The notes beneath the pieces were generated by a model that saw only the letters and a list, made by a program, of their open reading frames with translations, was not told the origin of the DNA and did not search any database. 64,000 nt of DNA, taken from positions 1-64,000 of IMG/VR virus record IMGVR_UViG_3300009164_000001; one strand, given 5' to 3'. A program made the translations under genes and the position numbers. Of the stretch, positions 9,740 through 39,991 are shown piece after piece; position 1 is the first letter of the stretch; each line of letters opens with the position of its first letter. Source of the DNA: a virus.

Positions 9740-12700
9740 TTATTTATTGCTTCCTGCTCCAAGATCAAACCACTTAGCTGCGGCCCCTGGATCAGAAGAC
9801 TTTTCAATTCCTCCCCATATTGGGATAAGCTTTGCAATTTTTGCTTGTAACTTGCTGTCCCCTTTTTCGTGTATTCCAGAACGACGTTGGTAGTAAGAAT
9901 CTTCATCGTTTCCAGTTACAGTTCCTACAGCTGTAGAGAATGTTTGGTGAACAACATCTAAGAATCTTTGTAGCGGTCGAACAGTTGCTGTAGGACTTAC
10001 TGCAAGCTTTAAGAATTCTTCTGGGTTTATGAACTGAGTTAATTCAGAATTCATACGAAGAGCTTGATACATCAAGAATTGTTCTCCGTAGCTTTCATCA
10101 TCGTCATCTCCACCTAAAGCTGATAAGATTAGCAAGCATAATGTAAAGAAGGCCATTTGAACACTAACACGTTTTACGTTTTCTTTCTCAAAGTCTTCCA
10201 TCATTTTGTACACACTTACAAAGTTTCCTCCTTTTCTATATGTATCTCCAATGAAACGTTTCATTGTAGTAAGCATACCTTCTGAAATAGTTCCAAGCTC
10301 TAAGTCACGGTGGATACCCCCACGAAGTCCGTTGTGTCCAAAGTTTCTACGAAGAGATGGTACAAAGTAACGACGGAATAGCATGATTAATTTACCAAAT
10401 GATCTACGTTGAAGCATAGCATCATCAAACTTAGTTTTAACCTGGTTAGTTTTCTTAGTTAATCCAGAAATCTTTCCCATGAACTGCATTCTATTAAACT
10501 CCCCAAGTACTTCTATTGTGATATCATTACCATCTTCATCAATCTCATTTACTTTTTTCATCACACGAACCTTAGGGTCCACAGAATATCGGCCAGTCTT
10601 TTCATCTAAGACAAATACATCCCAAAGATTTGCATCTTGGCCTTCTGCATTCTTAAGCACTTGTCCATTTTCATCAAGTAACTTTCCTCTGTATGAATCC
10701 ATTAAAGCAAACATACGAGTAACAGCTGTCTCATGTTCAGGGATCTTTTGAAGGATCATTGGAATATCGTTAACAGCTTTTAATGCAAATGGTCCTGACT
10801 TCTTTTTGTTAGCTATGTCTAAGGCCTCTCCAAGAGCATCAAATTGTTGAATGGCTTGTACAAGTTTAGACTGTGGGGCAAATGAATCAAAGTCTTTAAG
10901 TGACGATAATCCTCCATTAGCAATAGAGTAGTACGTTCTCTTAGCCCATGCTAAGTTTGATTTATTAAAGAATTGATTGGCCACTCCTTCTTCTACCATA
11001 CGAACGTTATCTATCAAGAACTGGTTAGTAGCTTGAAGAGCATTGAATGCAAGGTTGTTTAAAGCTGTAAAGCTTGCAAGTTTGTTAGCTATTTTGTTGG
11101 CTGAAAATTCCCGTCCAAAGATATCGAGATTGGTTTTGAGATCCTTCTCTCCATAGAAGATAGTGTCAATCCATTCATTTAAATGTTTAAAGTCATTGCT
11201 ATCCCCTTTTTTAACTACGTGTTTGGTAAATTTAAGTTTCTTACCAAATGCATGGTAGATAGGATGGCCGGCAGAAGTTGTTTCGTATGTTATACGATTT
11301 TCTATTGCATCTCTCATCAATACAACAGCTCCATTAATCTGTGCTTTTCTTTTGAAGATGTTAGTCATTCCAGAGAACTGGACGATCGTGCTAGCCAAGT
11401 CACGACTAACTAATTTTTCTTCAAGAGGATTTACGTAGTAAACAGGTATTACTTTTTTAGTAGACTCTCTGTTTGCATTGATTGCATCCCCATAGCTTGT
11501 ATCTGTAGATAAGAATTGAAATGCTTCTTTAGTAGCATCTTTAGTTGCTGACCATGCTCCTTCTCTTTGTACTTTTTCTAAACCTTCTGCACGAATACTT
11601 GGGGCAATGTAACTAAAGTTATCCCAAGAGTTTTTTGGTTGCTGACTAGCCTGTCCTAAGATTTTTTGTTTCTCTTTGTAAAGGTCAAGCAATCCATTGT
11701 AATAAGCAAATGCTGCAGGGTTTGATTGAAGTTGTGCATATTTAGGGTTTGCATACTTAGCATTAGGTTGCACAGCATTGTATTTAAATACGTTTCTGTT
11801 AGTGTCGTAGATTTTATTAATCATAGACTCTACAGTGTCAAAGTCATACTTATACTTAGCCATCAGCTCTGGATCCGGTGTCTTTGGGTTACCGTCAGCA
11901 TCAATTCCACTTGACTCTTGAAGCATAAGATTGTAGTATGCATCTTTGTCAAGAAGCAATTTATCAAGACGTGCTTGAGAGTCTGGACTTGGTGTTGTAT
12001 TAGCTGCATACCATGCTGCTACCTCTGTGTAATATGCTGCTTTAGCTGGAGATTTTTTCCAAGTTTTTAATGCATCCTCGTCTGATTTTTCTGGCTTAGC
12101 ATATTTTGCAGCAAGCATGTCGTACATATCAGACTCATCTTTCTTAAATCTTTTTACGTCGTAAGGCTGTACAAAAGATAGTAATCTCATTACCTCTCTT
12201 TTACCACTTTCAGGATTGTAAATTCTATATTCTTGTGTTTCTAATAATGCATCGTTAAATGTATTAGGATTTACACTTCCTCCTACAGATTCTTCGTAGG
12301 CCTTGTAAAGAGCTGCTACTCTGTAAATATCTGCTTGTGTATCATCATTGGCTTGATACATTTTGTCTTTTAACATTGTTGCAAACATTTGCAAACCAAC
12401 TTTAGATGAGTAGATGATTGGGTCCATCAAGTAACTAAATGCAGATTTATCTGCTTGCCCTTCTTTAAACTCTCTGATTAAAGTTGCACGAGTAATTTTC
12501 TTATTTTTAAGCTGCTCAATATTTAATGCTTTTAACATTTCATGAGTCTCTTCTTTAGTAATTGTACCTTCTTTTTGTTGATTAAGAATATTGTAGTATT
12601 CTTCAGTACGTTCAATAGCAACTAAACGATCATTCTTTTCAATGTTAGCAACAGCAGAATCAATCTGATCATTAATTTCAGGAGTATTGTATTCTAACAA

Positions 12701-14476
12701 CAAGTCCACCATCATAGGTATACCTGTCTCTAAGTACTTATCCGACATACCTTTCATTACATCGACAGCACTTACAATACTCTGTTCTAAAGATGAAAGT
12801 TCTTTGTATTTAGGATCGGTTAATAACTGTTCTTTAGTAAGACCTTTTCTTTCAATCTTATAACGTACAAGCTCACGGATGGCTCCCATCATACTATCTT
12901 TAGCCTCTTTGGCTCCAAAGAAATCAGATAAGTTTTGGCCTGCAGAATGCAGTTGGTGGATAAGTTTTAAACGTTGGTCTGTTGATAAACCAGTACTATA
13001 CTCTTGATTAACTTGTTCTATTAATGTTTTAGTGTTGTCTACAAGAGAAACTGCATACTCAATAAATTCTCCTAAATCCTCAAGCTCTTTTGCTAATTCT
13101 AATTTAGCTTGAATATTTTTTATTTTTTCAATTTCTTTTTCACTTGCATTCTCCCCTTGACGTTGAAGATTGATCATAGCTTCTTCTAAAGCTATTTTAG
13201 CTTGTGTCAATACTTCATCAAATCTTTTCTTTTTCTCATTGTCTAGAGCTTTACTGTCTGCTGCAAGAAATCCTACTGACATATTTTTAAACAGTCTGCT
13301 ATCAATCTTATCTTTCATAAGAATTTGAGCAAGCTCTTCAACTGCAGACGGTCTTGCTTCTACACCAAAAAGTTTAGATAATGCACGAAAGATTCTATTT
13401 ACAATTGTTTGGAATTTGTTAGGATTCTTTCGTTGAATTTTTGCTCCAGCTATACCAATAGCAGTAGTCAAAACTTCATTATCTAATTGCTTCCCATTTA
13501 ATTCTGGGTAAGCTAGTTGTACTTGTTTATACAGATTGGTGTTACGAAGTTCTGCTATTGCTCTATTAACAACAGGGTTGTCTTCTCCAAGTAAATCTAA
13601 TAAGATGTGCCCAAACTCGTGGATAGCTGTATCCTCTGTCACCCTTGAAGGGTTAAGACGAATTATAGGTTTTTTACCAGGTGTAGAATCTACTCTACCT
13701 TTCCCATCTAATTCAGGATCAATAATGATTTCAATAGGGATACCAGCTCTTTCAAAAGCAACTCTCATTCTGTTGATACCCTCAGATATTGTTTCAATCT
13801 CAACATTCTGCATTCCCTCAATATCAATTCTGCTATCTTTTGACTCTTGTTCAAATCTAGCCATGATACTCTGGACATTCTCACGAGTCATTTTTGATTC
13901 AGCAACAGCTGCATCAAGAAGGTTTGGATTAAACTGATGTTTAAATTGTGAGGTTACTTGAGATGGTACCGGAACTACTGCTCTAGGACTTGCAACTCTA
14001 GCTGGACGTGGATCACCTGTAAGTGGAATGATAGGGTTAATATATCCATTGCTTCTTATAGGCTGTTCTAAAGCATACTCATAAGAGATTTGCTCGTTTT
14101 CAAATACTGGGGCAAGATTTGGTTGAATAGCACTAAGAATGTTTTCATTAAATCTTACAGCTATTTCTACATTGTTATTACGGCCTTCACGTTGTACTGG
14201 GGTAAGAGATATCACTGGGGCCGGTGCTCCGTAGTTAAATTGAAGAATTGCATTTAATTGCATAATATCTTCAATAGGAGATAAATCAAATCCAGTTTTA
14301 AGAATAGGGTTGAATAATCCCATTACATCAGCATCTGCTAATTCTCGTAATAAGTCTATAGCAGTAACATAACCTACCGAAGCAAGTTTGTTATCAATCA
14401 TGTTGATTACTCTAGTGTGGACAGGAGATTGTCTGATCTGTCCGTTTTGGTCTATTCTTAAATATGTACAAGGCAT
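9740..14476 (-). CDS. giant virion (ejected) protein with zincin-like domain and C-terminal hydrophobic helix
   Basis: 1578 aa; HEFGH motif (13607-13621) with downstream E (NEVL); C-terminal hydrophobic helix followed by DDDDE; downstream of the vRNAP, as in crAss-like phages. Confidence 0.75.
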   Translation of the reverse strand: MPCTYLRIDQNGQIRQSPVHTRVINMIDNKLASVGYVTAIDLLRELADADVMGLFNPILKTGFDLSPIEDIMQLNAILQFNYGAPAPVISLTPVQREGRNNNVEIAVRFNENILSAIQPNLAPVFENEQISYEYALEQPIRSNGYINPIIPLTGDPRPARVASPRAVVPVPSQVTSQFKHQFNPNLLDAAVAESKMTRENVQSIMARFEQESKDSRIDIEGMQNVEIETISEGINRMRVAFERAGIPIEIIIDPELDGKGRVDSTPGKKPIIRLNPSRVTEDTAIHEFGHILLDLLGEDNPVVNRAIAELRNTNLYKQVQLAYPELNGKQLDNEVLTTAIGIAGAKIQRKNPNKFQTIVNRIFRALSKLFGVEARPSAVEELAQILMKDKIDSRLFKNMSVGFLAADSKALDNEKKKRFDEVLTQAKIALEEAMINLQRQGENASEKEIEKIKNIQAKLELAKELEDLGEFIEYAVSLVDNTKTLIEQVNQEYSTGLSTDQRLKLIHQLHSAGQNLSDFFGAKEAKDSMMGAIRELVRYKIERKGLTKEQLLTDPKYKELSSLEQSIVSAVDVMKGMSDKYLETGIPMMVDLLLEYNTPEINDQIDSAVANIEKNDRLVAIERTEEYYNILNQQKEGTITKEETHEMLKALNIEQLKNKKITRATLIREFKEGQADKSAFSYLMDPIIYSSKVGLQMFATMLKDKMYQANDDTQADIYRVAALYKAYEESVGGSVNPNTFNDALLETQEYRIYNPESGKREVMRLLSFVQPYDVKRFKKDESDMYDMLAAKYAKPEKSDEDALKTWKKSPAKAAYYTEVAAWYAANTTPSPDSQARLDKLLLDKDAYYNLMLQESSGIDADGNPKTPDPELMAKYKYDFDTVESMINKIYDTNRNVFKYNAVQPNAKYANPKYAQLQSNPAAFAYYNGLLDLYKEKQKILGQASQQPKNSWDNFSYIAPSIRAEGLEKVQREGAWSATKDATKEAFQFLSTDTSYGDAINANRESTKKVIPVYYVNPLEEKLVSRDLASTIVQFSGMTNIFKRKAQINGAVVLMRDAIENRITYETTSAGHPIYHAFGKKLKFTKHVVKKGDSNDFKHLNEWIDTIFYGEKDLKTNLDIFGREFSANKIANKLASFTALNNLAFNALQATNQFLIDNVRMVEEGVANQFFNKSNLAWAKRTYYSIANGGLSSLKDFDSFAPQSKLVQAIQQFDALGEALDIANKKKSGPFALKAVNDIPMILQKIPEHETAVTRMFALMDSYRGKLLDENGQVLKNAEGQDANLWDVFVLDEKTGRYSVDPKVRVMKKVNEIDEDGNDITIEVLGEFNRMQFMGKISGLTKKTNQVKTKFDDAMLQRRSFGKLIMLFRRYFVPSLRRNFGHNGLRGGIHRDLELGTISEGMLTTMKRFIGDTYRKGGNFVSVYKMMEDFEKENVKRVSVQMAFFTLCLLILSALGGDDDDESYGEQFLMYQALRMNSELTQFINPEEFLKLAVSPTATVRPLQRFLDVVHQTFSTAVGTVTGNDEDSYYQRRSGIHEKGDSKLQAKIAKLIPIWGGIEKSSDPGAAAKWFDLGAGSNK

Positions 14477-14480
14477 AATA

Positions 14481-14488
14481 CAAAGATA
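14481..14488 (-). promoter_or_regulatory. Bacteroidota -7 element TATCTTTG
   Basis: Matches TAnnTTTG; 4 nt upstream of the ATG at 14476. Confidence 0.6.
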
Positions 14489-14494
14489 ATCAGA

Positions 14495-17400
14495 TTATAT
14501 AAAGCACGACATAGTTCCATCTTCATTTCCTATGTTATTCACTCCTGCTTCCCATACAGCATTTCTTCCAGAAGTTATGTAACTAACTAAATTAGTAGGC
14601 ACATCATTTTTAAGTACGTATGAAATACCAGTACCGTATAACTTTGTAGCTCCTCTAGCTGCAAATGATCCTGCTAGAGCTGTGTACATAGATACTTCTC
14701 TGGAATCATTTGGAATTCTTTGATATACTGCAGAAGTTTTAGCATCTTGGTTACGAACTATAACAAATGGTTTATGTATCTCTTTGCTAGTAATTATTGT
14801 TGCCATATCTGGTTTAAGCTCATCACTAGGGACAGTTGATAACATCCCTTGGCCAGCAGCTCTCATTTTACCAAACATAGTCATATATCTAACTAGATCT
14901 TTTGCATCAAAGTAATTACCATCTGCAAGTTTTTCTCTTTCGTTGTACATGAATTCTGAGATTGTAACTTTCTTATCAGAACCTTCTACTTCCATTGGAG
15001 TAGTAAAGAATTCAGATGGAACAAGGTCAGAGTATGAATCAGCACTTTGTCTAAAACCATTAGTAATAAACGTATGCATAACCAAGTCTCTCCCTAAACG
15101 TTTGATTTGATTAACTTGAGATTGAATCTCTGGACTGTATTTTCCATCAGGTCCTAAAAACTTTTGCTCAAGAGGAGCAGACACATATGCAACAGGATTG
15201 TACAGCATTGTACGAAGATTGTTTGTGTAAGCTTCTTTTGCTGAACGTGTAGGAGTTACAGAGTTATCAAACTTAATACCGTAGTAACCAGCTTGTGCAT
15301 TAACATCTAACTCTAAGTTAGCAATGAATGGTGCACTAGCTAAAGCTGGGTGCTTTGCTCTAAGTTTTAACATTCTTTCTCCAATGTTGTTAGAAGGACT
15401 GTCGTACAAATCTCCATAAGTAGTATTTGCAAAAAATGGAGATCCAGGCCTCATCAACATCATAAACATTAAGTTGTAGTCAATCAACTGATGCATTTCT
15501 GCATTGACATCATTTCTACCACTAGCTCTCTTTAAGTTTTCTTTGAAGTTGTTGAAAGCATTTGAAGTACGGATTGGAAAGTACATACCTGCAAGTTCCA
15601 ATCCATCTCTTAATAACTTTTCATAACCTCTTTCAAATCCGTAAATAGAATTTTCTCCAATGTATTGATCTACCACGTTACGGCCGGGGCTCATGCTGTC
15701 AAAGAATAAAACTTCTTTGTTTACTTTTCCATCTTCTGTATCGTAGTCCTCATCAAACTCAGCTTGCTTATCCTGGTACCCTTGAATAGAACCAATACGA
15801 TTCATACCATCCATAGAATCTGGAGTAATACGTTTGTACATGTTCATCAAGCTTCTACCAGCTTTTGAAAAGAATTCAAAGTTGTGTAGGAAGATTGCTT
15901 GTTCAGCCATATCTCTTCCTTCGATAAAATTAAATCCTGCTTGTTGAGTAGCGGCTTTAGAACCAGCAATGTTTGCAAGTTCAGAAGCTTTCATTGGAAG
16001 AGATTGAGCTAAGTTTATACCTTCTCCTTTAGGGATAAGATTATTTAAGTTATACTTTGTCTTGATAAAATCAATAGACTTAGTTAATTTTCTTAAATCT
16101 CCTCCATGCTTTGTTTCAAACACATCTATTAACTCTCTAATGATAGGCTGGTTCAAGAAGTTGGTGCATGTTTTAGAACTATACTCAGGAAAGAAACCTA
16201 AGAATAATGCACGTACTCTAGAGGTAAGCATGTTGTCATTTAACTCCGTATGAATAGGAACGTTTGAAGCATCCACAGCAGCTGATAAGAACAAAGATGT
16301 TGATCTGTCTGTAGGGATACCTTGTGCTTCTTTTACGTAGTTAATGTATTCAGTTATGTTTCCTGAGTCATCAATTATTTTAATAGCATGGCTTTTATTT
16401 ATAGCAATGTTACCGTGAGAAGCTACGTTACGTCCAGACAGCATGTTTGCATAGATACCACGAAGTTTGTTACCCTTGATACTACGAACAATAGTGTTAG
16501 CTTCAGTATCCCAAGCATTCCAGTCAGTAGCCATTCCAAGTTCAGGCTTTACTTTTCTAACACGAGCTGCTTCATTAGGAAGGGTCTTGTCATCGAGTGG
16601 AGCAAATACCTCATTGAAGTGAGCAGGATTAGAGTAGACTGCTTCAACTGTATCAAAGATAATGTTGTTTAGCATCTCTGGTGTTACAAGCTTTTCATTA
16701 GATAAAGCTGCTACATTTTTTGCAAGTGTCTTATAGTTTGGAATTACTTTTCTAATGCTGTATGGGTAATCTGGGGTCGGCTCAACTTTCTCTACCTCTG
16801 GGAAAAGTAAAGTTAATTTATCGACGTCATGGTCAGATCCCATCAACTTGATAAGCTGTCCTGGTACAACGATTCCTTTTTGGTAGTTGGCTGGTAAGAA
16901 CTTAGCAATTTTTAAAATAATGGTTGCAGACTTATCGGCATTAGGGGTACGGTAACCTATGATTCTACGTAGTTCTTCTGGTACATCGTCCAAAGATTCA
17001 CCTGGTTCAATCCCAAACTGACGAGCAAGGTCTTCACGAATCATGATCTCAGCATGAATAACTCTCTTACCGTCTTCAGAAATTTGTGTGAAGTTTAATG
17101 CATTGTCTACTCTGTGCCCACCTATCTGTGCAATCTGTACTGCATCGTATCCTTTAGCCTTTTGGTTAAACACTTTGTTGTTAACCAAAGACATGATGAT
17201 AGACTCATACTTCTTATTGTAGATAGGTAAGTCTAATGGAATAGAGAACCTTGGCATTCCTGTCTCATCAAAACTAATCTTGATAGCATCAGAATAATTT
17301 GAAGGAAGATCACTCTCATCAATCTGCTTTAACAAAATATCTCTTACCTTTTGCAAAACTTCTAGTTTTACTTTTTTAAGGTTATCAATATCTCCTAGTG

Positions 17401-20400
17401 CAGTTGCTTCTCTAAGCTTGTCAATCCCTAATTCTTCTTCTACTGCATTTGTATCTCTTCTAAGTTTCTCTTCAATAGCAGCATGGTATAGCTTCTTCAT
17501 TGCAGATCCAGTCAAGCTAACTTGAGAACCTAGTCCTGCATTTAAATCATAGATAGTCCCATCTGCAACATTAGCAATCATGTTCTTTTTCAACTGACGG
17601 CTGATGATAACTTTTGGATCAGGTTTCATCTCCCCAATGTTCTGAGGGAAACGAAGTTTCTTAGAGTTATTTTTATTTATAACCATATTACTGAGTTCCC
17701 CAATATTCCCAGTATGTTGGTATACCCCACGTTTTGCTACCTTCTTACCTGATACGTGATTTAATACGTGCAAAGGCTGTAAACCTTGTCCTGCATATTG
17801 TCCGTCAAGTTCCATACGTGAACGTATGTCTTCAAGGTGTGGGAAATCTTTTGTGTATTCTTTCAACAATACAGTGTACGAATTCTTTTCAGAAGTTGTG
17901 CTCATCATATTGTTTTCTTTGTCGTAGTGTACATCCTCATAGTATGGTTTATGTGGTGTAACAGGGACAGCTTCTCCTTCTTTATAACCTTTAGGGAGGA
18001 ATCCTTTTTGGTATACAAACTTACCAGTTTTCTTATATGCTTTGTAAGCCTCTTCTTCTTCTGTGCCCCATTTACCTTCTCCCATAGAGATGTATCTATG
18101 CATGTCTAAGCTAATAAAAGCCTGAGCATCTGTAGATTCAAAAGCTCCTGGACGATAAGCATCAGCAATAGCTAATGACTTTTCAAAAACTCTTGTAGTT
18201 GCTGGTAAAAGTGCAGCTATTTCTGTATTAATTTTTGCAGAAGAAACTCTTCCTTTAGAATTAGCTGCATTAATTGTAATATTTTTTCCTGAGATTTTTA
18301 CAGCTGGTTCTGTTTCAGTAGCTGTTGCATTGTATTCAAATGTAACTCTGTACTTGTTAACAGTTGGGCCTAGCTTTGATAACTCATTGTTGATAAGTCC
18401 CCTAGCAATGTTATCACAAGCTGCATGTCCTTGGGCAGTAAGTGCAGGAGTCAAGTCAAGATGCAAATCTCTCATTGTAACTTCATTGAACTCTTTTATC
18501 ATTCCATAAAGCTCTCCTTTAATGAATGTTCTTGCATTTGACAACTCTCCTTGTAAAGCCAATCTTGTACCAGGTGTAGTTAAATGGCCCATACGTTTGT
18601 AGAAGTTCTCTAAGTTCTTGTGATTTGCTCTGCTTCCACGGAACATTTTCACAATTTCATTTCTCATTAAAGCTTCTGTAACAATGAATCCTCTCATTGT
18701 AGTTTCAAGGGCACCTTTTTCTTGAGAGAAGTTTATGGCTCCTACTCCAAGGCTGCCTATTTTTTTACTATCTTTTAAAGCAACTGTTGCAGCCTCTGCC
18801 TGCTTTGTAAAATATTCACTCATTTTAAGAGTCATTTTAGCAAGCCTAGCATCTATATCAATAGTCTCTGCAGGAGTTAGTTTTCCTGCTACATAATCAT
18901 TTATTTTATCACTCAGTTGTTGAACACCGTTGTAAGCAACACTGTCTTCTTTTATTACTTCATCAGTTACAATGGTTAATCCGTCTGCATCTTTTGCAGT
19001 AAACTGGAAATAATCTTCATTAAAGGCATTCCCTAAATATTTATTGTCTTTTAGAATTCCTTCTTTTGTCGGGTTACCTGGCTCAGTGTGCACACCTTCT
19101 AAAAGTGTACTATAGTTCTTAGTTGTAATTGCAGTGTGTACAACTTGCTTAGCAGCTGATACACGTAACAAGTCTTGTACAATCTGTGCTTTTATTAAGT
19201 CAGCCTCAGAGTTATCGATACCATAAGGGTTTACTAAGACTCTTGGTACCTCAATGAAAGAATATTTGTTACGGTCAGATTGAACTGGTACAGCAATAAA
19301 GCAGGTCTCAGATCTTGGGTCATTGTTGATAAAGGCATTGATCCTTACAACTAAGTTATCAAGTTTTGAGAAGTCCTCGTAAGACATTGCATCATCAACT
19401 TTGTCCCCACTTTTAGCAGCATCAAAGTCAACTACTTTAAAATCTTTTAAGAATCCTGGAGTTTTTAAGTATCTAAATAATACACTTGCAAACTTAGGAT
19501 TGTTACCTCCATTAATGAATGGATCTGACATGTATTCTTTATACAGTTCAACACTCTCAGCACTTCCATCACTAAGGGTGTTAACAATATCATTCATGTT
19601 AGATGCAAGATTAGATGGGTACATAGCTTTACCCTTACTGTTCACAAAGCTTTCTCCAATTGTATTTAGCATTGGAGTAAAGTAATTAACAATACCTGTA
19701 ACTAATGCTTTATTTAAACTGATGTAGTCTGCTGTTGGAGTGATTGTCTCAAGCTGTTCTACAGTACTTTGTCTAGAAGGTGTGAATTTTGCAGACAGTT
19801 TTAATACTTTAGTTAAATCTGCTGCAAGTAATTTAAGTAATCCAGTTCCATTATAGTTTCTAACTAATCCATTAGGGGATTTAATTCCTACACCAACGTT
19901 TATTAAAGACTGTAATGCCCATTTAGTTTCAGCTATATTTGAAGAGTCAGTTCCGATGTGCATCCCTAAGGCCCACATTAATTCTGCTACTTTTTCTACA
20001 GTCTCATTGATAGATCCATCAGATGTTTGAACAACAAATGTTCTTGGATCAGATTTATTTAACCCTTTTTCTAAGTCTCTAACAATAGCAGCTGCTGCTA
20101 ATATTTTTTCTCTATCAGCTTCTAAGTATGTTACTGGACTTCCATCAGAGTTTATAGTTGGTTTACCTGCAGCATCAAGCACCGGTTTTCTTTGGTACAA
20201 GGCTCTAGGGTTCTCATTGTTATCTCTGATAAGTTGGGTTTTCCAACGGTCAATTGTCCCAGCTACTACGTCCTTTCTATTAGGATTGATTACGTCTGCA
20301 AATCTTTTATTGCCTTCAATACGATCTTTGATCATAATGAATTCAGTATTTACAAGAGCAAAAGCAGTGTAAAGCATTGCACAGTCACGGTCATCTAATT

Positions 20401-21988
20401 TTGACATGAAATCTGCTATAGGCTGTAGCACTGGTTTTAATTCTGCAGCTTTTTTTATTGCTGCATGCATAGATTCAAAAGTTTGTTTACCAGTAAATAC
20501 ACGTAGCATTTCTTGGTACACATCTTCTCTATTCATATAAGAACGTACCCCTAAAAGATTTGGTTCTATATTTCTGATAGTACTCAGCAATTCCTTAACC
20601 TTTCCCGTTAATCTTTTTGACGGAGATTCTTGTAAGGTAGTCATACTGTATATTTTCATAGTACCCTCATCAACTAACTTCATCTCTTCTTGAAGAGCAT
20701 CTAAATCTGCTGGGTCTAATTCATTGTTAGCATCTATATCAAAGCTGTCATCTTTATCTTCCTCTATATTTCCTTCAGCAGTAACTGTATTGTTAATCTT
20801 TATACCGGCCTCACGAAGTTTAATCTCTAAGAATGTTCTCCAACCTGTTTGTATTGAGTTTCCTGTAGCAGGATCGTACACATCATTCCACGTGGATGCT
20901 ACATTTTTGAATACATTTCGAAGAGTGATGTTCTCTTCCATCGTAAACTCTGCACCCACTTCTTCAAGTGCATTCCACATAGCAGCTTCTGCATCGTCAA
21001 GTGACTCTGGAGTAGCAGCATCCATTGCTGTCTCAGCTGCAAATAACTTGTTAGCTTCTGCAGCAGTGATAACACTCCCATCAGTTTTCTTGTACATCTG
21101 CATTTGAAACTGATCTACGATAGCACCGTTCTTTCCATCAACACCTAATTGCACTTGTGCACTAAATCTTCTTCCTAGATCTTTTTTAGTATCCATAAAG
21201 ATTGTGTAGATAGTATCTAACGATGCTTTAAACATTGCATCCCCCATTTCTGGACGGTACATGTAAGCTTTCTTTGGACCTTTAAATTTCTCTGGGTTTC
21301 TGAATACCCCTCTACCAAGAATAGAAGAATTCATTTTACCACTCTCAATTAAAGAGTATGCTTGACGAAGGCTAAGGTTGTTTGTAACTAATGCTTTGAA
21401 GAAGTTCCATAGATCTCTAAAGAACTTTCCAATTTTAGCAGGTAAACTTTTTTCAGTGTATCCTTCAGTTAGCACATAGTCTTTAAAGTCATCAGCCATT
21501 TTCTCTTCCAAAGCAGCTTTACGTGCTTCTTCATCAGAGATTTCTGGGAATGTTCTTTTGATGTATCGAATCTCTCCTGCAGTCGGTTCTCCAAATCTTG
21601 TAGCAGCTTCTGCATACAATTGCTCTCTTTGACTTTCAGACAACATAGTTCTGAATGACAAGTGATAAGCTTCGTGAAATTCTGTCCCAATATCAGAGTT
21701 AGTCCACATATGAACTACTGCATTCTCTACATAACCATGCACTTCTTCTGACCCAATTTTTTCAACAGTATCAAAAAGATTTGCTTCTATCCCTCTTGAA
21801 GTAAGCCAAGCTTTTTTTTGGTCTGGACTTAACAAAGTATCTATTGCAGAACCTTTAAGTTTATTTCCATAATAAAATCCTGGAACTGTACCACGAAACT
21901 TATCCCATAATTTATGAGCAATAGCATCACCTTGAACAGCTGCAAGATCCTTGTATTCTTTTGAATTAATATTGGGGCAAAAAGCCAT
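14495..21988 (-). CDS. virion-packaged two-barrel DNA-dependent RNA polymerase (crAss-like, single chain) with N-terminal zincin domain
   Basis: 2497 aa; YRTP and GSDHDVDK (DxDxD, 16820-16834); KR...TPG, TDAQ, SAAVD motifs; N-terminal FHEAYH...LEEKMAD zincin. Confidence 0.88.
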   Translation of the reverse strand: MAFCPNINSKEYKDLAAVQGDAIAHKLWDKFRGTVPGFYYGNKLKGSAIDTLLSPDQKKAWLTSRGIEANLFDTVEKIGSEEVHGYVENAVVHMWTNSDIGTEFHEAYHLSFRTMLSESQREQLYAEAATRFGEPTAGEIRYIKRTFPEISDEEARKAALEEKMADDFKDYVLTEGYTEKSLPAKIGKFFRDLWNFFKALVTNNLSLRQAYSLIESGKMNSSILGRGVFRNPEKFKGPKKAYMYRPEMGDAMFKASLDTIYTIFMDTKKDLGRRFSAQVQLGVDGKNGAIVDQFQMQMYKKTDGSVITAAEANKLFAAETAMDAATPESLDDAEAAMWNALEEVGAEFTMEENITLRNVFKNVASTWNDVYDPATGNSIQTGWRTFLEIKLREAGIKINNTVTAEGNIEEDKDDSFDIDANNELDPADLDALQEEMKLVDEGTMKIYSMTTLQESPSKRLTGKVKELLSTIRNIEPNLLGVRSYMNREDVYQEMLRVFTGKQTFESMHAAIKKAAELKPVLQPIADFMSKLDDRDCAMLYTAFALVNTEFIMIKDRIEGNKRFADVINPNRKDVVAGTIDRWKTQLIRDNNENPRALYQRKPVLDAAGKPTINSDGSPVTYLEADREKILAAAAIVRDLEKGLNKSDPRTFVVQTSDGSINETVEKVAELMWALGMHIGTDSSNIAETKWALQSLINVGVGIKSPNGLVRNYNGTGLLKLLAADLTKVLKLSAKFTPSRQSTVEQLETITPTADYISLNKALVTGIVNYFTPMLNTIGESFVNSKGKAMYPSNLASNMNDIVNTLSDGSAESVELYKEYMSDPFINGGNNPKFASVLFRYLKTPGFLKDFKVVDFDAAKSGDKVDDAMSYEDFSKLDNLVVRINAFINNDPRSETCFIAVPVQSDRNKYSFIEVPRVLVNPYGIDNSEADLIKAQIVQDLLRVSAAKQVVHTAITTKNYSTLLEGVHTEPGNPTKEGILKDNKYLGNAFNEDYFQFTAKDADGLTIVTDEVIKEDSVAYNGVQQLSDKINDYVAGKLTPAETIDIDARLAKMTLKMSEYFTKQAEAATVALKDSKKIGSLGVGAINFSQEKGALETTMRGFIVTEALMRNEIVKMFRGSRANHKNLENFYKRMGHLTTPGTRLALQGELSNARTFIKGELYGMIKEFNEVTMRDLHLDLTPALTAQGHAACDNIARGLINNELSKLGPTVNKYRVTFEYNATATETEPAVKISGKNITINAANSKGRVSSAKINTEIAALLPATTRVFEKSLAIADAYRPGAFESTDAQAFISLDMHRYISMGEGKWGTEEEEAYKAYKKTGKFVYQKGFLPKGYKEGEAVPVTPHKPYYEDVHYDKENNMMSTTSEKNSYTVLLKEYTKDFPHLEDIRSRMELDGQYAGQGLQPLHVLNHVSGKKVAKRGVYQHTGNIGELSNMVINKNNSKKLRFPQNIGEMKPDPKVIISRQLKKNMIANVADGTIYDLNAGLGSQVSLTGSAMKKLYHAAIEEKLRRDTNAVEEELGIDKLREATALGDIDNLKKVKLEVLQKVRDILLKQIDESDLPSNYSDAIKISFDETGMPRFSIPLDLPIYNKKYESIIMSLVNNKVFNQKAKGYDAVQIAQIGGHRVDNALNFTQISEDGKRVIHAEIMIREDLARQFGIEPGESLDDVPEELRRIIGYRTPNADKSATIILKIAKFLPANYQKGIVVPGQLIKLMGSDHDVDKLTLLFPEVEKVEPTPDYPYSIRKVIPNYKTLAKNVAALSNEKLVTPEMLNNIIFDTVEAVYSNPAHFNEVFAPLDDKTLPNEAARVRKVKPELGMATDWNAWDTEANTIVRSIKGNKLRGIYANMLSGRNVASHGNIAINKSHAIKIIDDSGNITEYINYVKEAQGIPTDRSTSLFLSAAVDASNVPIHTELNDNMLTSRVRALFLGFFPEYSSKTCTNFLNQPIIRELIDVFETKHGGDLRKLTKSIDFIKTKYNLNNLIPKGEGINLAQSLPMKASELANIAGSKAATQQAGFNFIEGRDMAEQAIFLHNFEFFSKAGRSLMNMYKRITPDSMDGMNRIGSIQGYQDKQAEFDEDYDTEDGKVNKEVLFFDSMSPGRNVVDQYIGENSIYGFERGYEKLLRDGLELAGMYFPIRTSNAFNNFKENLKRASGRNDVNAEMHQLIDYNLMFMMLMRPGSPFFANTTYGDLYDSPSNNIGERMLKLRAKHPALASAPFIANLELDVNAQAGYYGIKFDNSVTPTRSAKEAYTNNLRTMLYNPVAYVSAPLEQKFLGPDGKYSPEIQSQVNQIKRLGRDLVMHTFITNGFRQSADSYSDLVPSEFFTTPMEVEGSDKKVTISEFMYNEREKLADGNYFDAKDLVRYMTMFGKMRAAGQGMLSTVPSDELKPDMATIITSKEIHKPFVIVRNQDAKTSAVYQRIPNDSREVSMYTALAGSFAARGATKLYGTGISYVLKNDVPTNLVSYITSGRNAVWEAGVNNIGNEDGTMSCFI

Positions 21989-21998
21989 AGTTGATTAT

Positions 21999-24900
21999 TT
22001 ATTTTGGGTTACAAATTTCTTGTATGTTCTCTCCAGAGGTATCTAAATTAGATATCATGCTCTCTAAGGATTGATTTCCCATTGCAGCTAGCATGTCATC
22101 TGGTAAAGCACTCATATCTACTGCCCCACCTCCCATTGAAACTACTTTCATTCCTCCAGTTGTAGTTTGTGAAGTTACAACATTTTTCTTACTTCCAAAG
22201 AATGCAGAGTTTGTTTTTGGAGCCACAAGCCCATCAGTGCTTGCTACTACTGGTGTAGCTGCAGGTGGCCCAGGTACAGTTGGTGTAACAGGAGCTGCAG
22301 GTGTAGTTGGAGCAGGTGCTGATGGAGTTGACGGAGCTGCAGGACCTTGAGGGCCTGAACCTTTAATCATTCCTTCAACTCTTGGTGCATACGATACAGG
22401 AATTCCAGGTCTATTAAATAAAGATGTAATATTTCCATCTGCATCATAATTTATTTCAAAAGGCATAATGCCTAATTTTTTAACACTAAGTCCAAGCATC
22501 TTATTAAATAAATAAGCATACCCAGAGACTTGAAGCTGATGTTTTTCTTTTTTGCTAAGTTGCCCTGGAGCAAAAGATCGAGAATAGCTTTCCCAACTTT
22601 TTAACTTGCTAGTTTTAACATCGTAGATCATGTAGTTACCATCTTTGTCGACAGCTAAGATGTCAATCTCTCCTGCTACTTTAGAAACTTTATCATAGAC
22701 TACAAGATTTCTAGTTATATATCTTCCACCTACAGCATCTAATTCTTTCTTGATTTTGTTAAGCTTTGTCATAAGCATATTAAATGCTCCTTCAGAGATC
22801 CCCTCAGGTCTTGTAGTATCACCTTCATCAAAGAATCTTTTAACAATTTCGTCCACAGTGTTTCCAGCAACTCTGCTATTTTCGTATAAAGCAGGGTCTC
22901 CAGTAAAATCATCAGGAAGAACATTAGTCATACGTTTGTATAACTCTCCATCAATGATGTAGAATTGCTCGTCTGCTGTTTTACCTTCTACAAGCTTTTG
23001 AGATTCTGCTAGTAAAGTCTCAATGTCAACTGCATTACTAGGGGCTGCTGGAACTACTGGAGTTGCGGCCGGAGTAGAAGAAGTTTTAGGGAGTGCAGTA
23101 GTTACTACAGAGTTTGCAGCAACGTCAGCAGCTTTTTCAGCTGTAGCTCCTTTAACACCTACTGGGCCAAACTTCATATTAACATCATGGAATACAGATC
23201 CGTTTGCATTTGGAACTGTATCTACTGCTAAGATTGAATTGTGTCCCACTCCTTCTGTTCTAGCTTCTCCTGCAAATTGAGCAGAGTCAGAAAGGTACTG
23301 CATGTAAGGATGAGTCTTTCCGTCTTCGTAAGGATAAACAGTTCCATCAATTGGGCTAGTGAATGGCTCGTTAACTCCAAATTTAAATTTATCTACTTGA
23401 TATTTTTTAGACATCGTAGCCTCTTTAAATTCATCACCAACGTTGTTTTCTACAACTCCATAATCTGCAGGTTCTTTTTTAACAGCTGTGAATTTGATAA
23501 ATCCTTGGTCGTTGACTTCAGATTCTATGAAACTAAATTTAGGCCTGCTTCCATTTAAAGCTGCCTTCATTTCACTAGCATTTATTTTTATAAGGCTATT
23601 TGCAGATTTAGAATAGAATATAAATATTGTTTGCCCATCTTCTAACTGGTATGTAGATATAAATTTAGTTAAACTATCAGGACGTTTAAGTTCTTCTGCA
23701 AGAGACTTATCTGTTATAGCTACTTCATCAGACTCTGATTTAGCTTCTACCTCAAGTAAGTTACAACCTACAATCTGGCCGTACTTATATGCCTCAGGAA
23801 TTTCTTTGGTGATGTGGTTAAGTGCAGCTGTTGCTCCTCTTGTATCCATATCTTTTGTACTGGCCATAACCATTACAGGAGTACCATCTGGAGACTCAAC
23901 TAATACAGCAATTTGTCCTGGAGTAACTCCGGTTGATTCTGGGTCGGCCGGATCACGAGGGAATGGACGAGACCCAGTTGCAATAACTTCTGCATTACCT
24001 TCTTCAGAATCATGCATTACTTTCCAAACTAAATCACCATTCTCACTACCTACATAGAATAATGTTGGAGTAGGCTGCTTTGTGATCTTAGTCACAGGGT
24101 AGAAGAACACTTTTCCAGAAGAAGTTCTAGCATTACTTATCTCAGAAGTATCATTGAACTTTTCCATTACACTTACTGTAGGAGTAAACCCATCTAAGAA
24201 GTGCTGTACAATTTCACGACGTTTGTTTCCTTTAAATCCTTCTGGACTATCTTCTTTATATGCAGCCAATAATTGAAGACGTGTACCATCAGGAAGAGCT
24301 GCATAGATTGGAACGTTTTTCCAACCAACAGTCATCATCCACTCTTTAAACTTTTCTGGGTCAGTAGCTGTATCACTTACTTCTGCTTCATTAGGAATCT
24401 GGCTTTTAAACCAGTCAGTATCTATTGCTACAATTAAATCTAACGTAGTTCCAACTGGGACCATTTCTGAACTAGTCAAATGTTCTGGGAACATTAGCAC
24501 AGTAGAACCTTCAATTGTTTGCCCCATTTGACCACGTAGAGCTGGGTCATAGCCTGGCATATCTTTTTTAGGGGCTTCAGTTCTAGTCTGGCCATTAAGG
24601 TCTACTAAAACTTTTCCATTCTTTTTAACAACGGTTCCTTTTGCTAATTGAATATCATTAGCTTCTCCAGACACAACTGCTTTTGGGGCACCTGGATCCT
24701 CAGTAGGGGCTTCAAATACAGGATCACCTGCACCCATTCTTAGGACATCTTCAGCAAGTAAAGCTTCTTCTTTAGCTTTTCTTATAGCTTCGGCTTCTTC
24801 ATTGGTGATGGAGCCATCCATCCCTTCCGACGTAAGTCCTGCTGCAGGGTCGATATCCGCTGCTTGAGGCTCTTGCCCTTCAGGAGTAGAGCTAGGTCCT

Positions 24901-27900
24901 GCGGTACTGTCACCGTTTTGATTACGTTTCTCAAGTTCTCTTTGCTCATTGACTTCGTTTATTATGTTTTGTTGTCTTGTTATCTGTCCTTTCTTAGCAG
25001 AAATTTTTCTATCAGTAGCTAATTTAGAGTTTTTTGCAGCATCTACATCTTGTTCTCCATAAACACCGTCAATAATTTTTTGGTACTCATTGGATAAGTC
25101 TTCAAGCCTAGCTTTTTCTTTAGTTAATTCTTGAATTTTTGCATCAGCTGTAGCAATAATAGTGTTATATTCTATTTCTGTAGGAGATAATTCAATTTCC
25201 TCTTTAGCATCTAATCCTGCTTTTTCAGCAGCTTTCATTTTGCCTAGAACTTTGATCTTCTTTTTAAGAAGGTCATTCATTCTTTTTCTAAGTTCTAATA
25301 ACTGTGCAACTTGTGCATCAGCTTTAAACTCTTTCATGCTAAAGCCGGCCTCAAGTGCAACAGCTCTTTCCATTGCAAGAACCTCATCAAGTTCTTGAAG
25401 ATCTTGTTTGATTAACTCTACTTGATATCGAAGTTCATCCATGCTCAGACCTGCCGTCTTTGACATGTCTTTCATTTCTTTTTGCAGAGTATCTTCTTTA
25501 GCTAAGATTTCTTCAGTATCAGTGATTAAGTTTTCAGCTATTACAGCAATGTTTTCTTTAGACTCTTCTAAGGTAGTAGTATCAGTCTCTGATATTGGAC
25601 GAATCTTAGAAGCTTGCAATAAAAGATTGTATGCAAGTAATGTAGCAATTGCTGTTTCTCTTTCTATAGCAGCATTAGTTGCATCGGCCTGAGCTTCAGC
25701 TGCAATTTGAGCAGCCTCTCCAGGTTTCATTACTACTCCAGTTGACAGCTGAGTCTCTTGATAATCCTGTGGATTAACGTTAGCTACAGGGACAGTTGCT
25801 TCTTGTATTTTCCAAGTAACTTCATTTCCAGTTTGCCAGTCAGTAAGTTTTACTCCTACTACTTCTCCAGCATCATCTAGAATTAAAGCTTCTACTGGGT
25901 CAGCACTCTCCATGTAGTATTGCCTTCCATCAATATTAAATTGAGTTCCGTTTGGAGAAACCATTATCTCATCCAACAGAGTTTGCTCCATTTCAGACAG
26001 ATTGACAAGTCCTGCACTTTCCCCTCCAACAGTTTTAAATTCTTTTTCAGATTTAAGTTGATCGGGAGTAAGTCCTTTTTTTCTAGCTTCTTCAGTTTTA
26101 GCCTCCATTGCTTTCATCAATGCCGATTGAGACATTGCATCTAAGCTTTCCATGTCAATAGTTTTTAGATCTTCTAAATCCATTGTCATGTACTGAGCAA
26201 TCTTAGCTTTTTCTTCAGTTTCAAGTTGAGCACGTCTCTCTAAAGCAGCAGCTTTAACTTCTGGAGAAGCATCTGGATCCACAGCATCTGTAAGATCGTC
26301 TGCAGTTTCTGCTCCTGCAATTGCTTGTTTAGCTCTATCTTCTGCAGCTCTCTTCTGTTCTTGTTCCTGCAAAGCCATTTGAGCTTCTACGTACAAATCC
26401 ATTTGTTCTGGATTACGAGACAAGTTTTTAAATGCCTCTGAAAGACCTGCACGTTTGATTGACAGGTCACGAAGGTGAAGTAATTCAGCTTTAAACTCAT
26501 CAGCAGTTGCTACATCTAGTTCTGATTTAGCAGCATAGATTTCGTTAAGTTGTTTACCAAGATCCTCTTTAGGTTTAGCAGAAGCTGTTGTTTTAAATGA
26601 TGGATTACCATTTGAATCAAGTTCTACTCCCCCAACTTTGATCTGGAACTTCACTTCATCTGGATCTAGTTTTGCTAGAGCTGGAGCAAGCTGTACAAGT
26701 CTATCATATTGCTCGTCAATTCTACTATCAATAGTATCAATGTCAAGAAGATTGTGAGTTAAGATTTGTCCGTAAGTTCTACGTACAGCATCTTGAATCA
26801 GTTTGTTCTTTTTAGTTTCTTCTGTTTGAAGCCCTTCTTTAATCTTAGCCACTAGTGATGTACCAGGGTTAAACTGTGAAAGGATGTTGTGCACCTGCTC
26901 TGAACGTTTGATAGCAGATTGCATTTTAGTTTTTGTGTCCTCAATGATTTGCATCTGAGTTTTACCAGTCTGCTGCTCAAGAGTACGATTCATGTCATAA
27001 CCAAAAGCTTGCTTGAATTCTTTTTCCTCCATTGCAGCAGCATCATCAAACTGCTCCATTGCATAATCGATTGCCCCTAACCCATTCATCTTAGCAAAGA
27101 CTCCATGGATTAATCTCATACGAGCTGTTTCAGCTTTTAAATCGTTTTGACGTCTTTCAGCTTTTGTAATTCCTTCTCTTTCATTGTCAAGATTAGCATC
27201 ATTAATGTCTTTGATAAATGCTAAGTTCTCAGCACTTTGCTCTGCATTCTCGATAATTTTCTTAATAGCCCCTGAGTTAAGCATTTTTATAGCTTCAGTA
27301 GTATTAAGTCCTTTTTGAGCAAGAAGTTTTTTCTCAGCTCCCATAAGACGACTTACTGCTCCGGTACCACCTCCGACTAATGCTCCAATCAATATGTTCT
27401 CTAAACCTTCTTTAGTCCCTATAGTCGATGACAATGCTTTGCTCATTGCAGAAGCCATGTCTCCTGTACCATCGTTAAATTTTTCTCCGTAGTAGTTACG
27501 TGCATATTGAGACCCAGCAAACTGGCTGGCCTCTTGGAAACCTTCTTCAGCAGAAGTTTTAAGTACAGGCCCAAATGTTTTTTGTGCTCTACCATAAGCT
27601 TTTCCAAACTTAGAGCTTGCAGCTTTTTCAACCCATTCTTCCCCTGCAGTTAACCCTTTCTTCTCAATGTCGTACATTGTTTTTTCCCCAACACGGGCAC
27701 CCTGCATTGCTTTACCAAACATCAATAAGTTTGTAGCAGTTAAAAGAGGAAGGTTAATAGCAAACGTAGTATTACCTACAGCATTAGCACTTTGCAAAAT
27801 ACCGTCTTCTACATCTTTTGGCATAACCTGACCGGGGTTTTGCTCTTCCCACTCTGCTTTACGTTCTTCAATAAATGAGTTTTTAGCTTCACGAGCTTCA

Positions 27901-31147: not shown

Positions 31148-31156
31148 GGCATTTTA

Positions 31157-34100: not shown

Positions 34101-34222
34101 AGGTAATATGAAGCCTGTGGAGCTTGTGAAACTCCACTTAGGTTATATCCAGCTAAAGAGTACTTCTTAACTTTCTTTAGTGCAGGTTTTTGTTGTTGTC
34201 TACTAATTAGTTTTTTGGCCAT
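31157..34222 (-). CDS. cargo/ejection protein (crAss cargo-1-like) with xxGG repeats
   Basis: 1021 aa; directly downstream of the muzzle; Gly/Ala hydrophobic helices, G.THEEGG...EVE..E motif, multiple [YFM]xxGG motifs. Confidence 0.65.
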   Translation of the reverse strand: MAKKLISRQQQKPALKKVKKYSLAGYNLSGVSQAPQASYYLGQSAADEAGKNQNVALQSLKETQDELKKLNEDQKKQQQDVVKQSGMELGKLALSTGKDIFAERAAKQAAAAATKTVASTAAKEFGTNAAMAGEAGVDLASTGASVGSTAVNAANTAGSFMAGVSSYGQPVAAALNIGGEIIKNTGSDNNAATFTKKERNHYGVGNIMASVGKGASYGSVAGPYGTLAGAVAGLGYGIYDTIKDNKASTEEAGKLAMADTDQMSAVNNSFINSKMMDSYRGGNQMARNGGMKRYAMGGSECPPGTTYNPATGACDPVAQATPQFNYFTTPAVAPEEDKASGEMYNSFDEQSARRNARKEYQQKKQQYNMDWAKARRVDIDSADPHTLQDRIPYPQMPLSPAEQRRVDAGKEPGTFFDHYQSDPKRPGTRMLNDWNNNLMEGDQDLGFRQERPVEEEQSSGGGGGGLRGLFTKKGKANYGGDHSKRQTGADFFQRQLNKHCQQVNSHADGGMMDPNCYEFGGSYNDLGGTRYAEGGKIKPIPNSNDVEYLGNTHEEGGIKLDKYTEVEDKETGTKINGNQYFFSRVLKTPKGEPYSQAHKAIASNPSLDPISKKNIIKDLARQQEEQAGRDPKQIARTGGMQEYAGGGKKKDPKKKSSYKDFKDYTGMENYDLPTGPTNEPSTGFMLNGQLVEYRMDAQTGDYIRDPKTNQPIPFPVSTKTDLKVQDGLKQELLDYNFRPQDNGEPGNLPKDPERKLDLSKTWLEEHPGFLGGLAQLAGPAYAMLKPYKKTAGMAAAQSVTAPSLARVDKSGEIEDARRQQNAMNTYLKNTNLGPGKIIAMQSVATKTADEIAKISQRQDQENRAIKNSEAQIAAEVAGRNQAAQLEASKSNMMADINQNQYMDERNLGVAEALGKGLAGMSMDQRKLDMQYRIARGLDKTGSLNRYEIMEQLRKQAKNPESPVYQKSEGELQQIASDLGYKVVQVLADDKEEKRFGGMGRKYTSRLGDLSTKRNTTAKQSI

Positions 34223-39097: not shown

Positions 39098-39991
39098 TTA
39101 GAAGTATCCTCTTCCGTAAGCTCCTCTGTTTAATTCTTCTCTTGTTCCCAAATTCTCGAAGAAGTTTGCATGTCTGTTCAAGTTTGGGATAAGTCTTACC
39201 CACTGATTCATGAATGATTCGTACTTATCGATGCTTGGGAAGTTAGCTTGATTACGTGCTTGAGTACAGTAGTATTTCCACTTAGTATCTGCAAAATTGT
39301 AATCAATTCCATTCATAGCTGGGGTATATCCCCCTAATAACATTTGTTTGTAAATGTACCAAAACATAGCTTCTTTAAAGCTGATGTCGTCTGGCACCAT
39401 TGGGTAACAGTCTTCATCTACTGGAAATGCTGTGTAGCTAAAACAAACTACTCCTTTTTCAAATGAAGTATTAAGATAATCCCCATTGATTGTATAGGTG
39501 TCTTTTGATTTAGCAAACTTGTTTTCACATTGTTCACAGTGAAGTCCAATAGGGAAATTGTTTGTCCCGTACTGCAATGGTGATAATGGTTGCCCTGATG
39601 AAAGGTAAAGGTTTTCAATTACTGAAATCCTTGCATTTAACTCTCTAAGTTGGTAGTTAAATCCTGTAGCATCATCTGGGTTAGACTGAATAAGATCATT
39701 TAAAGCTTTTACCTCAGCAAGTAATTCAGTCAATTCAGTCGACATTGACGGACTAATTGTGTTGTTAATAGCCACTTGATTTATGTAATACAAATCAGCT
39801 GGCATTACAGTTTTGAAGTTTTCGATATTTAAAACACATCCTTTTTGAACAAGCTGTGGGGCAGAGCCAATATGCTCTAGAGCCTCTCCAGTCCATTCAA
39901 CAGCATCATCAATCCAGTTATCTCCAGGGGGTTTTAAGTCCCTCATGACTTTACGGATAATTACTTTGCTAGATACGTTTTTATAAATCAT
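39098..39991 (-). CDS. tail ring / head-tail adaptor protein
   Basis: crAss-like gene order (IHF, ring, muzzle); P.D.Y and YPMVPD motifs. Confidence 0.6.
   Translation of the reverse strand: MIYKNVSSKVIIRKVMRDLKPPGDNWIDDAVEWTGEALEHIGSAPQLVQKGCVLNIENFKTVMPADLYYINQVAINNTISPSMSTELTELLAEVKALNDLIQSNPDDATGFNYQLRELNARISVIENLYLSSGQPLSPLQYGTNNFPIGLHCEQCENKFAKSKDTYTINGDYLNTSFEKGVVCFSYTAFPVDEDCYPMVPDDISFKEAMFWYIYKQMLLGGYTPAMNGIDYNFADTKWKYYCTQARNQANFPSIDKYESFMNQWVRLIPNLNRHANFFENLGTREELNRGAYGRGYF

Follow-up and report, generated by a model that had tools for sequence, protein, structure and literature searches.

Why would three giant phage proteins that contain almost no cysteine keep one at each of the ends that face each other? 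The question is raised by IMG/VR virus record IMGVR_UViG_3300009164_000001, of which we analyzed positions 1 to 64,000 (64,000 nucleotides, hereafter the window). This stretch carries three consecutive genes, here called A, B and C, which by homology form the RNA-polymerase cargo block of a distant crass-like phage. A preliminary description of the window, made from the sequence without database searches, had suggested that the three products may be joined in gene order through their facing cysteines, by disulfides or shared metal sites. When the same block was compared across related phages, a simple rule appeared: a cysteine pair flanks every gene break in the cargo block and is missing in every fusion, with almost no cysteine elsewhere. 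On this comparison, we consider it probable (roughly 0.75) that the facing pairs link A, B and C end to end, most likely by disulfide, as pieces of one polyprotein.

In the human gut, no viruses are more abundant than crass-like phages, which are also common in water. How approximately 700 kDa of their cargo protein, an RNA polymerase included, passes through a narrow tail has yet to be explained (PMC10172136).

Terminal cysteines of the three cargo proteins

The genes, the spacers between them and the four cysteine codons at the facing ends are listed below in the order of transcription.

21999..28817, minus strand: gene A, 2272 amino acids (aa); cargo protein homologous to crAss001 gp47, phi14:2 gp67 and p-crAssphage gp45
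22011..22013, minus strand: TGT codon of A Cys2269, the fourth residue from the C-terminus; putatively paired with B Cys4
21989..21998, minus strand: spacer of 10 nt from the stop of A (TAA) to the start of B (ATG)
14495..21988, minus strand: gene B, 2497 aa; crAss-type virion RNA polymerase (vRNAP) by homology, with an N-terminal zincin-like domain
21977..21979, minus strand: TGC codon of B Cys4, in the invariant motif M-x-x-C-P-N
14504..14506, minus strand: TGC codon of B Cys2495, the third residue from the C-terminus; putatively paired with C Cys3
14477..14494, minus strand: spacer of 18 nt from the stop of B to the start of C
9740..14476, minus strand: gene C, 1578 aa; cargo protein homologous to crAss001 gp49 and phi14:2 gp65
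14468..14470, minus strand: TGT codon of C Cys3; 10 diverse homologues all keep M1 and C3

Together, the three proteins contain 10 cysteines in 6347 aa: two in A (C1685 and C2269, the latter at −4 from the end), six in B (C4, C536, C896, C1191, C1941 and C2495, the last at −3) and two in C (C3 and C1447). As translated, A ends in QEICNPK, B starts with MAFCPN and ends in MSCFI, and C starts with MPCTY. The preliminary description had called the proteins very poor in cysteine, with cysteines at the facing termini and none at the outer ones. Its open reading frames (ORFs), quoted ends and counts of 2, 6 and 2 proved exact, and the outer termini, MAESDAIL at the N-terminus of A and GAGSNK at the C-terminus of C, indeed contain none. 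The start codons of all three genes are unambiguous, each being the first ATG, GTG or TTG past an in-frame stop, and for B and C they are further supported by M1 and the N-terminal cysteine, which are invariant in alignments of homologues.

Cysteine accounts for 0.16% of the residues of A, B and C (0.09% without the terminal cysteines) versus a mean of 0.72% over the other 34 ORFs of the window, and none of these 34 has a cysteine within its first 10 residues. The chance of finding a cysteine in all four facing segments of five residues is approximately 4e-9 at the cysteine rate of the three proteins themselves, and approximately 1.6e-6 at the background rate of the window. The facing pattern is thus correct as described and far beyond chance.

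Gene breaks and fusions across lineages

To follow the pattern beyond the window, we collected 81 IMG/VR loci, in which ORFs were called (with TAG read as glutamine where needed) and modules were assigned by BLAST against A, B and C. These loci were reduced to 41 lineages at no more than 60% identity, the window included. The preliminary description had proposed a comparison of this kind, and its hypothesis survived it. Facing terminal cysteines are conserved and co-occur in relatives: of the breaks that fall inside the cargo block of the 41 lineages, 45/45 have a cysteine on both sides. In the upstream protein, it lies within the last one to five residues (once at −9), and in the downstream protein at position 3 to 6. 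Interior cysteines are very rare across the lineages (88 in 207,397 residues, or 0.042%), and even at a cysteine content of 1% the probability of 45 flanked breaks out of 45 would be below 1e-90.

Where the genes are fused, the pair is absent. The A+B fusions, of 3700–4500 aa (L014, L017, L025, L048 and L071), have a single cysteine, which is C-terminal, and the gene that follows them starts with MAC, MSC or MATC. The B+C and A+B+C fusions, of up to 5639 aa (L013, L018, L019, L021, L022, L027, L035, L054 and P0061), have no cysteine at all; for example, the fused protein of L027 reads SIENINNKQY where B of the window reads FCPNINSKEY. At the outer ends of the block, cysteines were found at 4/31 N-termini and 1/38 C-termini. 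These exceptions are most simply read as cases in which the partner gene is truncated or located elsewhere, as is confirmed for the crAss001 type only.

A tree of the RNA polymerase (RNAP) core implies at least five switches between split and fused genes at the A/B junction and at least four at the B/C junction. Phylogenetically independent contrasts gave six changes in the same direction, none in the opposite direction and one that was uninformative (two-sided sign test, p = 0.03). As far as such covariation can speak for function, the data show that the two cysteines at a break would act together and would become dispensable once a peptide bond joins the pieces, with none needed at the outer ends.

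Several loci have interruptions or extra ORFs in the block. In L065 (4620-13495), the polymerase gene is split by approximately 1.3 kb that includes a 255-aa ORF, and the two halves end without cysteine (STTKVGKV and MTKKEWLD). This interruption looks like an intron or a mobile insert, not a true protein break, and would serve as a natural negative control. No cysteine pair was found at any of the insertion- or frameshift-like breaks (L065, L015 and L004). The odd ends in L015 and L004 were considered as true gene breaks and rejected; they look like frameshifted pieces, and the true ends of these proteins keep their cysteines. In two distant lineages (L024, 16874-17365; L033, 8776-9264), an ORF of 162–163 aa occupies a gap of approximately 500 nt between the polymerase gene and the C-like gene. 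Its product has four to five interior cysteines, and the flanking cysteine pair is retained; we rejected these ORFs as extra links of a chain and take them as ordinary cysteine-containing inserts. In other loci (L066, L069, L070, L074-L077 and L080), the cargo genes are open only with TAG as a sense codon (glutamine assumed), with approximately 60 TAG codons in a 4500-aa A+B fusion. The recoded loci obey the junction rule, with ends such as KKRRKECE facing MQCLNLKN.

Conservation among homologues

The database holds 62 homologues of B, with identities down to about 25%. Nearly all of the full-length ones start with M..CPN or MxC and have a cysteine two to six residues from the end, and in many of them these two are the only cysteines in approximately 2400 aa. 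The invariant columns of the B alignment include M1, C4, P5, N6 and C2495. In the last 150 residues of A, where the tail is rich in Pro, Thr and Ala and otherwise poorly conserved, cysteine is the sole invariant column, and in the first 240 residues of C the invariant positions are M1, C3, G12 and L46.

Conservation of an N-terminal cysteine close to a zincin motif could have another meaning. In the pro-domains of matrix metalloproteinases (MMPs), a “cysteine switch” caps the zinc of the protease domain, and the N-terminal cysteines of B and C might do the same for the adjacent HExxH domains, whose motifs are located as follows.

21662..21676, minus strand: HEAYH, the HExxH zincin motif of B (aa 105-109)
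13607..13621, minus strand: HEFGH, the zincin motif of C (aa 286-290)

The distribution in the window fits, as Cys4 of B goes with HEAYH at 105 and Cys3 of C with HEFGH at 286, and A has neither an N-terminal cysteine nor HExxH. However, many homologues of B retain the N-terminal cysteine without any HExxH (P0046, P0049-P0056; L009-L011, L016 and L034), and others have insertions of 170–500 aa between the two. Conversely, fused proteins with an intact HExxH have zero cysteines (L027 and L035), and the C-terminal cysteines would be left unexplained. With cysteine kept without HExxH, and HExxH kept without any cysteine, we rejected the MMP-like switch, which we consider very improbable.

The insertions themselves were seen in P0015, P0018, P0020-P0023, P0031, P0042 and P0044, between the M..CPN module and HExxH, and look like accessory domains carried within the ejected polymerase. 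Some of the homologues that bear them have, for the protein as a whole, precomputed Pfam hits to PF13671 (AAA_33) and PF18760. Hits to PF02195 and PF25176 occur in other homologues of B (P0048 and P0037).

The cargo block in known crassviruses

The blocks of phi14:2, crAss001 and p-crAssphage have proteins homologous to those of the window, in the same module order and with the same terminal-cysteine rule, although the RNAP core of the window phage is only about 25–30% identical to that of cultured crassviruses. In phi14:2, the only cysteine of gp67 (1797 aa) is its last residue, gp66 (2180 aa) has Cys3 and Cys2179 (−2) only, and the sole cysteine of gp65 (1421 aa) is Cys3. In crAss001, gp47 (2341 aa) has its sole cysteine at −3, gp50 has Cys5, one interior cysteine and one at −9, and the sole cysteine of gp49 is Cys5. 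In p-crAssphage, gp45 ends in SCM, while gp44, which is a B+C fusion, starts with MSC and lacks a C-terminal cysteine. The phi14:2 preprint reports that fused “polyprotein” forms exist and says no more on linkage.

These phages also show that the junction can move. The zincin segment is at the C-terminal end of gp47 in crAss001 (L082, 8120-15145) versus the N-terminus of B in the window (aa 96-186), and the annotation of p-crAssphage gp45 gives it as a zincin fusion. Since the zincin domain belongs to the A-like protein in crAss001 and p-crAssphage but to B in the window, the point of the A/B break varies, and the cysteine pair stays with the break. In addition, crAss001 gp47 is encoded on the strand opposite to gp50 and gp49, at a site that is not adjacent to gp50. 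Together, the moved zincin and the opposite-strand gp47 indicate that the pair tracks the protein break rather than a domain, a position in the operon or a nucleotide context. Pairing in the order A-B-C is well supported because the cysteines co-occur at breaks, are missing in fusions and follow the breaks when these shift.

The same observations bear on whether the pattern could be a coincidence, or a signal at the nucleotide level (translational coupling or start-stop context) that happens to encode cysteine. In many lineages, the stop and start codons are near each other or overlap (TAATG), and TGT is the dominant cysteine codon, as such a signal might require. However, the cysteine offsets vary (−1 to −9 upstream and +3 to +6 downstream), TGT and TGC are both used, crAss001 gp47 keeps its cysteine on the other strand and away from gp50, and breaks that are probably insertions or frameshifts (L065 and L015) have no such pairs. 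The chance probability is negligible. Offsets, codon use, the strand of crAss001 gp47 and the probabilities exclude chance and an RNA-level signal in practice, and we give this explanation next to no weight.

Identity of the block in the window

Neither A, B nor C had a match in a Pfam search, and a phmmer search of PDB with B as a single sequence also returned no match. The profile of an alignment of 15 diverse B homologues (alignment A1) matches PDB 6VR4 chain A, which is phi14:2 gp66, with an E value of 9.8e-33. With tblastn, B finds Crassvirales genes annotated as “putative RNA polymerase”, over the catalytic core only and at about 30% identity. The core includes the following motif.

16820..16834, minus strand: DHDVD catalytic loop of the B RNAP (aa 1719-1723), in which D1719, D1721 and D1723 are invariant

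By homology and by the DxDxD loop of two-barrel RNAPs, B is a Crassvirales virion RNA polymerase of the phi14:2 gp66 type. BLASTP relates A to crAss001 gp47 (5e-26) and phi14:2 gp67 (1e-9), and C to crAss001 gp49 (1e-32) and phi14:2 gp65 (9e-29). Upstream, in the same structural operon, are the tail ring proteins CrAss_Ring_1 (Pfam; 39098-39991, 2e-58) and CrAss_Ring_2 (41892-42599, 6e-33). From these gene matches, we identify A-B-C by homology as the crAss RNAP cargo block. In a PHROGs search, A gave an exonuclease-like match at aa 2019-2117 and one family of unknown function, and nothing further.

The phi14:2 and crAss001 homologues of A, B and C are virion cargo by mass spectrometry, and for gp47, gp49 and gp50 of crAss001, which travel as cargo in the capsid, exit via the tail requires partial unfolding (PMC10172136). 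By analogy, A, B and C are probably packed into the virion and injected by the window phage. This is probably a freshwater phage, as the single sequencing run with the whole stretch, which is probably its source, is labelled freshwater metagenome. Every other run contains a small share of the stretch and gives no indication of habitat. The operon contains further genes of a similar kind.

28832..34222, minus strand: two upstream cargo-like genes of the same operon, encoding proteins of 771 aa and 1021 aa

The 771-aa product has no cysteine, and the 1021-aa product has a weak match to the crAss001 cargo protein gp45. Since neither has a terminal cysteine, the chain would begin at A. An AlphaFold monomer predicted for aa 1-260 of B from the 8 rows of alignment A3 had low confidence (mean pLDDT 58.5) and was not used as evidence; in this model, residues 1-9, including Cys4, form a coil that is followed by two fairly confident helices.

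How the facing cysteines may be joined

The explanation that we favor is that A, B and C would be parts of a single giant polyprotein for cargo or ejection, which is one chain of 5000–5600 aa in other crass-like phages. At each gene cut, a cysteine pair would stand in for the absent peptide bond and tie the two proteins end to end, most likely through a disulfide between the chains that would form inside the particle.

One solved example of such a bond exists. Cryo-EM of the virion of cyanopodophage A4 (Anabaena phage A-4L) has resolved its pre-ejectosome, where Cys1715 of gp27 is disulfide-bonded to Cys5 of gp26 (PNAS 2025, PMC12002296). We found in the A-4L genome that these are the sole cysteines of gp27 (1717 aa, at −3) and gp26 (1114 aa, at +5). 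Like the proteins on either side of A/B and B/C, they are consecutive large ejection proteins with near-sole cysteines at facing ends, and the geometry matches (−4/+4 and −3/+3 in the window, −3/+5 in A4). There is no sequence similarity between A4 gp26 or gp27 and the crAss block (BLASTP gave no hit below an E value of 0.1, and phmmer none to any module ORF), so the A4 pair is an analogue and not a family member. Other differences should be considered as well. A4 belongs to the family Saffermanviridae, has one link where the crAss block would be a three-protein chain, and involves no RNA polymerase. Its bond is described as the staple of an ordered pentameric ring, and covariation with gene splits or fusions has not been reported for it. 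Finally, a bond of this kind has been seen by cryo-EM in A4 only.

The facing pairs could instead bridge the proteins through a shared metal ion, as a Zn, Fe or Cu clasp with no disulfide. Covariation data show pairing and not chemistry, and the HExxH zincin motif in both B and C indicates that metal is present in these proteins. However, known inter-chain clasps have two cysteines per partner, such as the CxxC of the Rad50 hook or the CD4-Lck clasp. In the crAss block, each terminus has a single cysteine instead of two metal ligands, and no second conserved ligand (His, Cys or Asp) was found near any junction among the 45 junction pairs. Junction cysteines are also present in B proteins without HExxH, HExxH-bearing fusions have no cysteine, and the one solved case of this pattern, in A4, is a disulfide. 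A metal clasp is, therefore, unlikely in our view.

Slightly less likely still is that each terminal cysteine works alone and not with that of its neighbor, for example in homodimers, in cyclization of B or in attachment to the portal or inner capsid. B has a cysteine at both ends, so that an intramolecular bond is conceivable, and crAss001 virions contain disulfides, in which their tail and portal-vertex proteins are rich (PMC10172136). On the other hand, the A+B fusions have one cysteine and the C protein that follows them has one, which makes cyclization impossible there. Independent cysteines would also be predicted at the outer ends, where they are nearly absent (exceptions at 4/31 N-termini and 1/38 C-termini), and both cysteines of a pair disappear jointly upon fusion. 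In A4, the bond seen is heterotypic.

Between the two modes of joining offered in the preliminary description, the sequence evidence thus favors a disulfide and disfavors a shared metal site, while its pairing in gene order stands. The disulfide is favored because there is one cysteine per end with no second conserved ligand, because crAss001 virions contain disulfides and because of the A4 precedent.

From a probable link to a possible ordered thread

If the proteins are joined in this way, the virion would contain an almost linear A-S-S-B-S-S-C thread of approximately 6350 residues, from which only stubs of a few residues would project sideways. Elsewhere, the sequence would have been purged of cysteine, like that of other ejected phage proteins, so that no wrong cross-link could block partial unfolding and passage through the tail. 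Such a tether would maintain a 1:1:1 stoichiometry and would let the next protein be pulled into the tail channel by the leading one. In the host cytoplasm, reductants would then part the three proteins.

We hold this extended proposal more tentatively than the link itself, at somewhat less than even odds: a split polyprotein of 5000–6500 residues would be rebuilt in the capsid by disulfide “stitches”, would exit as one ordered thread and would be cut by host thiol reductants. As part of the same proposal, redox-gated release would stand in for the peptide bond of the fused forms, or for its proteolysis. Because the cysteines are only a few residues from the chain ends, and because single-chain fused versions exist, the data suggest that near-linear continuity may be what selection maintains, for a thread that would pass through the tail before cytoplasmic reductants sever it. 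The sequence data would fit equally well with a structural “staple” of the kind seen in A4.

Other translocated proteins offer comparisons. In two-chain AB toxins, such as diphtheria toxin and the clostridial neurotoxins, a single inter-chain disulfide keeps the two chains attached while they translocate, and its reduction in the target cytosol frees the active chain. The toxins are not homologous to the crAss block, their two chains are made by nicking a single polypeptide and their bond lies away from the extreme termini, so the likeness would be an analogy of mechanism only. N4-like phages resemble the crAss block in that they eject a giant virion RNA polymerase together with partner proteins, and in that cysteine is depleted. 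In their ejected proteins (N4 gp50 and DEV gp71, gp72 and gp73), cysteine is strongly suppressed, for which the authors cite passage through the oxidizing periplasm (PMC11445570). Depletion of the N4 gp50/DEV gp71 type is evident here too, at 0.16% in A, B and C against 0.72% in other window ORFs, and at 0.042% in the interiors of relatives. The difference is that N4-like proteins have essentially no cysteine, termini included, whereas the crAss block keeps exactly those at the junctions.

Several points weigh against the end-to-end linkage or its extension to a thread. No disulfide between these proteins has been observed in any crass-like phage, and the phylogenetically independent contrasts are few (six informative). 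The proteins are made in the host cytoplasm, which is reducing, so the cysteines could be oxidized only inside the capsid or once the cell has lysed, and the habitat of gut crassviruses is largely anoxic. The A4 disulfide staples an ordered ring, and this precedent does not, therefore, imply a thread function. Purging of cysteine is not absolute either, since B of the window has four interior cysteines and A and C have one each.

Within a few kb of its cargo block, p-crAssphage (BK010471, L083) is annotated with a thioredoxin and a truncated thioredoxin (24369-24647 and 25367-25636), which could have a bearing on how the redox state of cysteine-tipped cargo is handled.

Our literature search, from which subscription-only papers were excluded, found no paper on terminal cysteines or on links among crAss cargo proteins. 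The A4 paper gives one such bond as a structural detail, and we found no published description of the pattern in Crassvirales. If the linkage is real, a covalently chained thread would explain stoichiometric packaging and ordered ejection, as well as the purging of cysteine and the free tolerance of fusion and fission among cargo genes. It would also make the single structural observation in A4 an instance of a device general to podophage ejection systems, and it provides a concrete hypothesis for the cultured phages phi14:2 and crAss001. For annotation, terminal-cysteine pairs can be used to mark where the genes truly end and in which order the chain runs, including for genes that are not adjacent.

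Other cysteine-bearing proteins of the operon

Two further proteins of the window have distinctive cysteines. Between the two crAss tail ring genes (40503-41384, minus strand) is a basic, GG-rich protein of 293 aa whose sole cysteine is its last residue (KKMGGKMC). None of its neighbors has an N-terminal cysteine, and the residue may form another terminal disulfide, in a homodimer or as a link to a tail protein. A 156-aa protein encoded at 46383-46853 (minus strand), for which Pfam gave no match, has 12 cysteines (7.7%), ends in DETCGCGC and is by far the most cysteine-rich ORF product of the structural operon.

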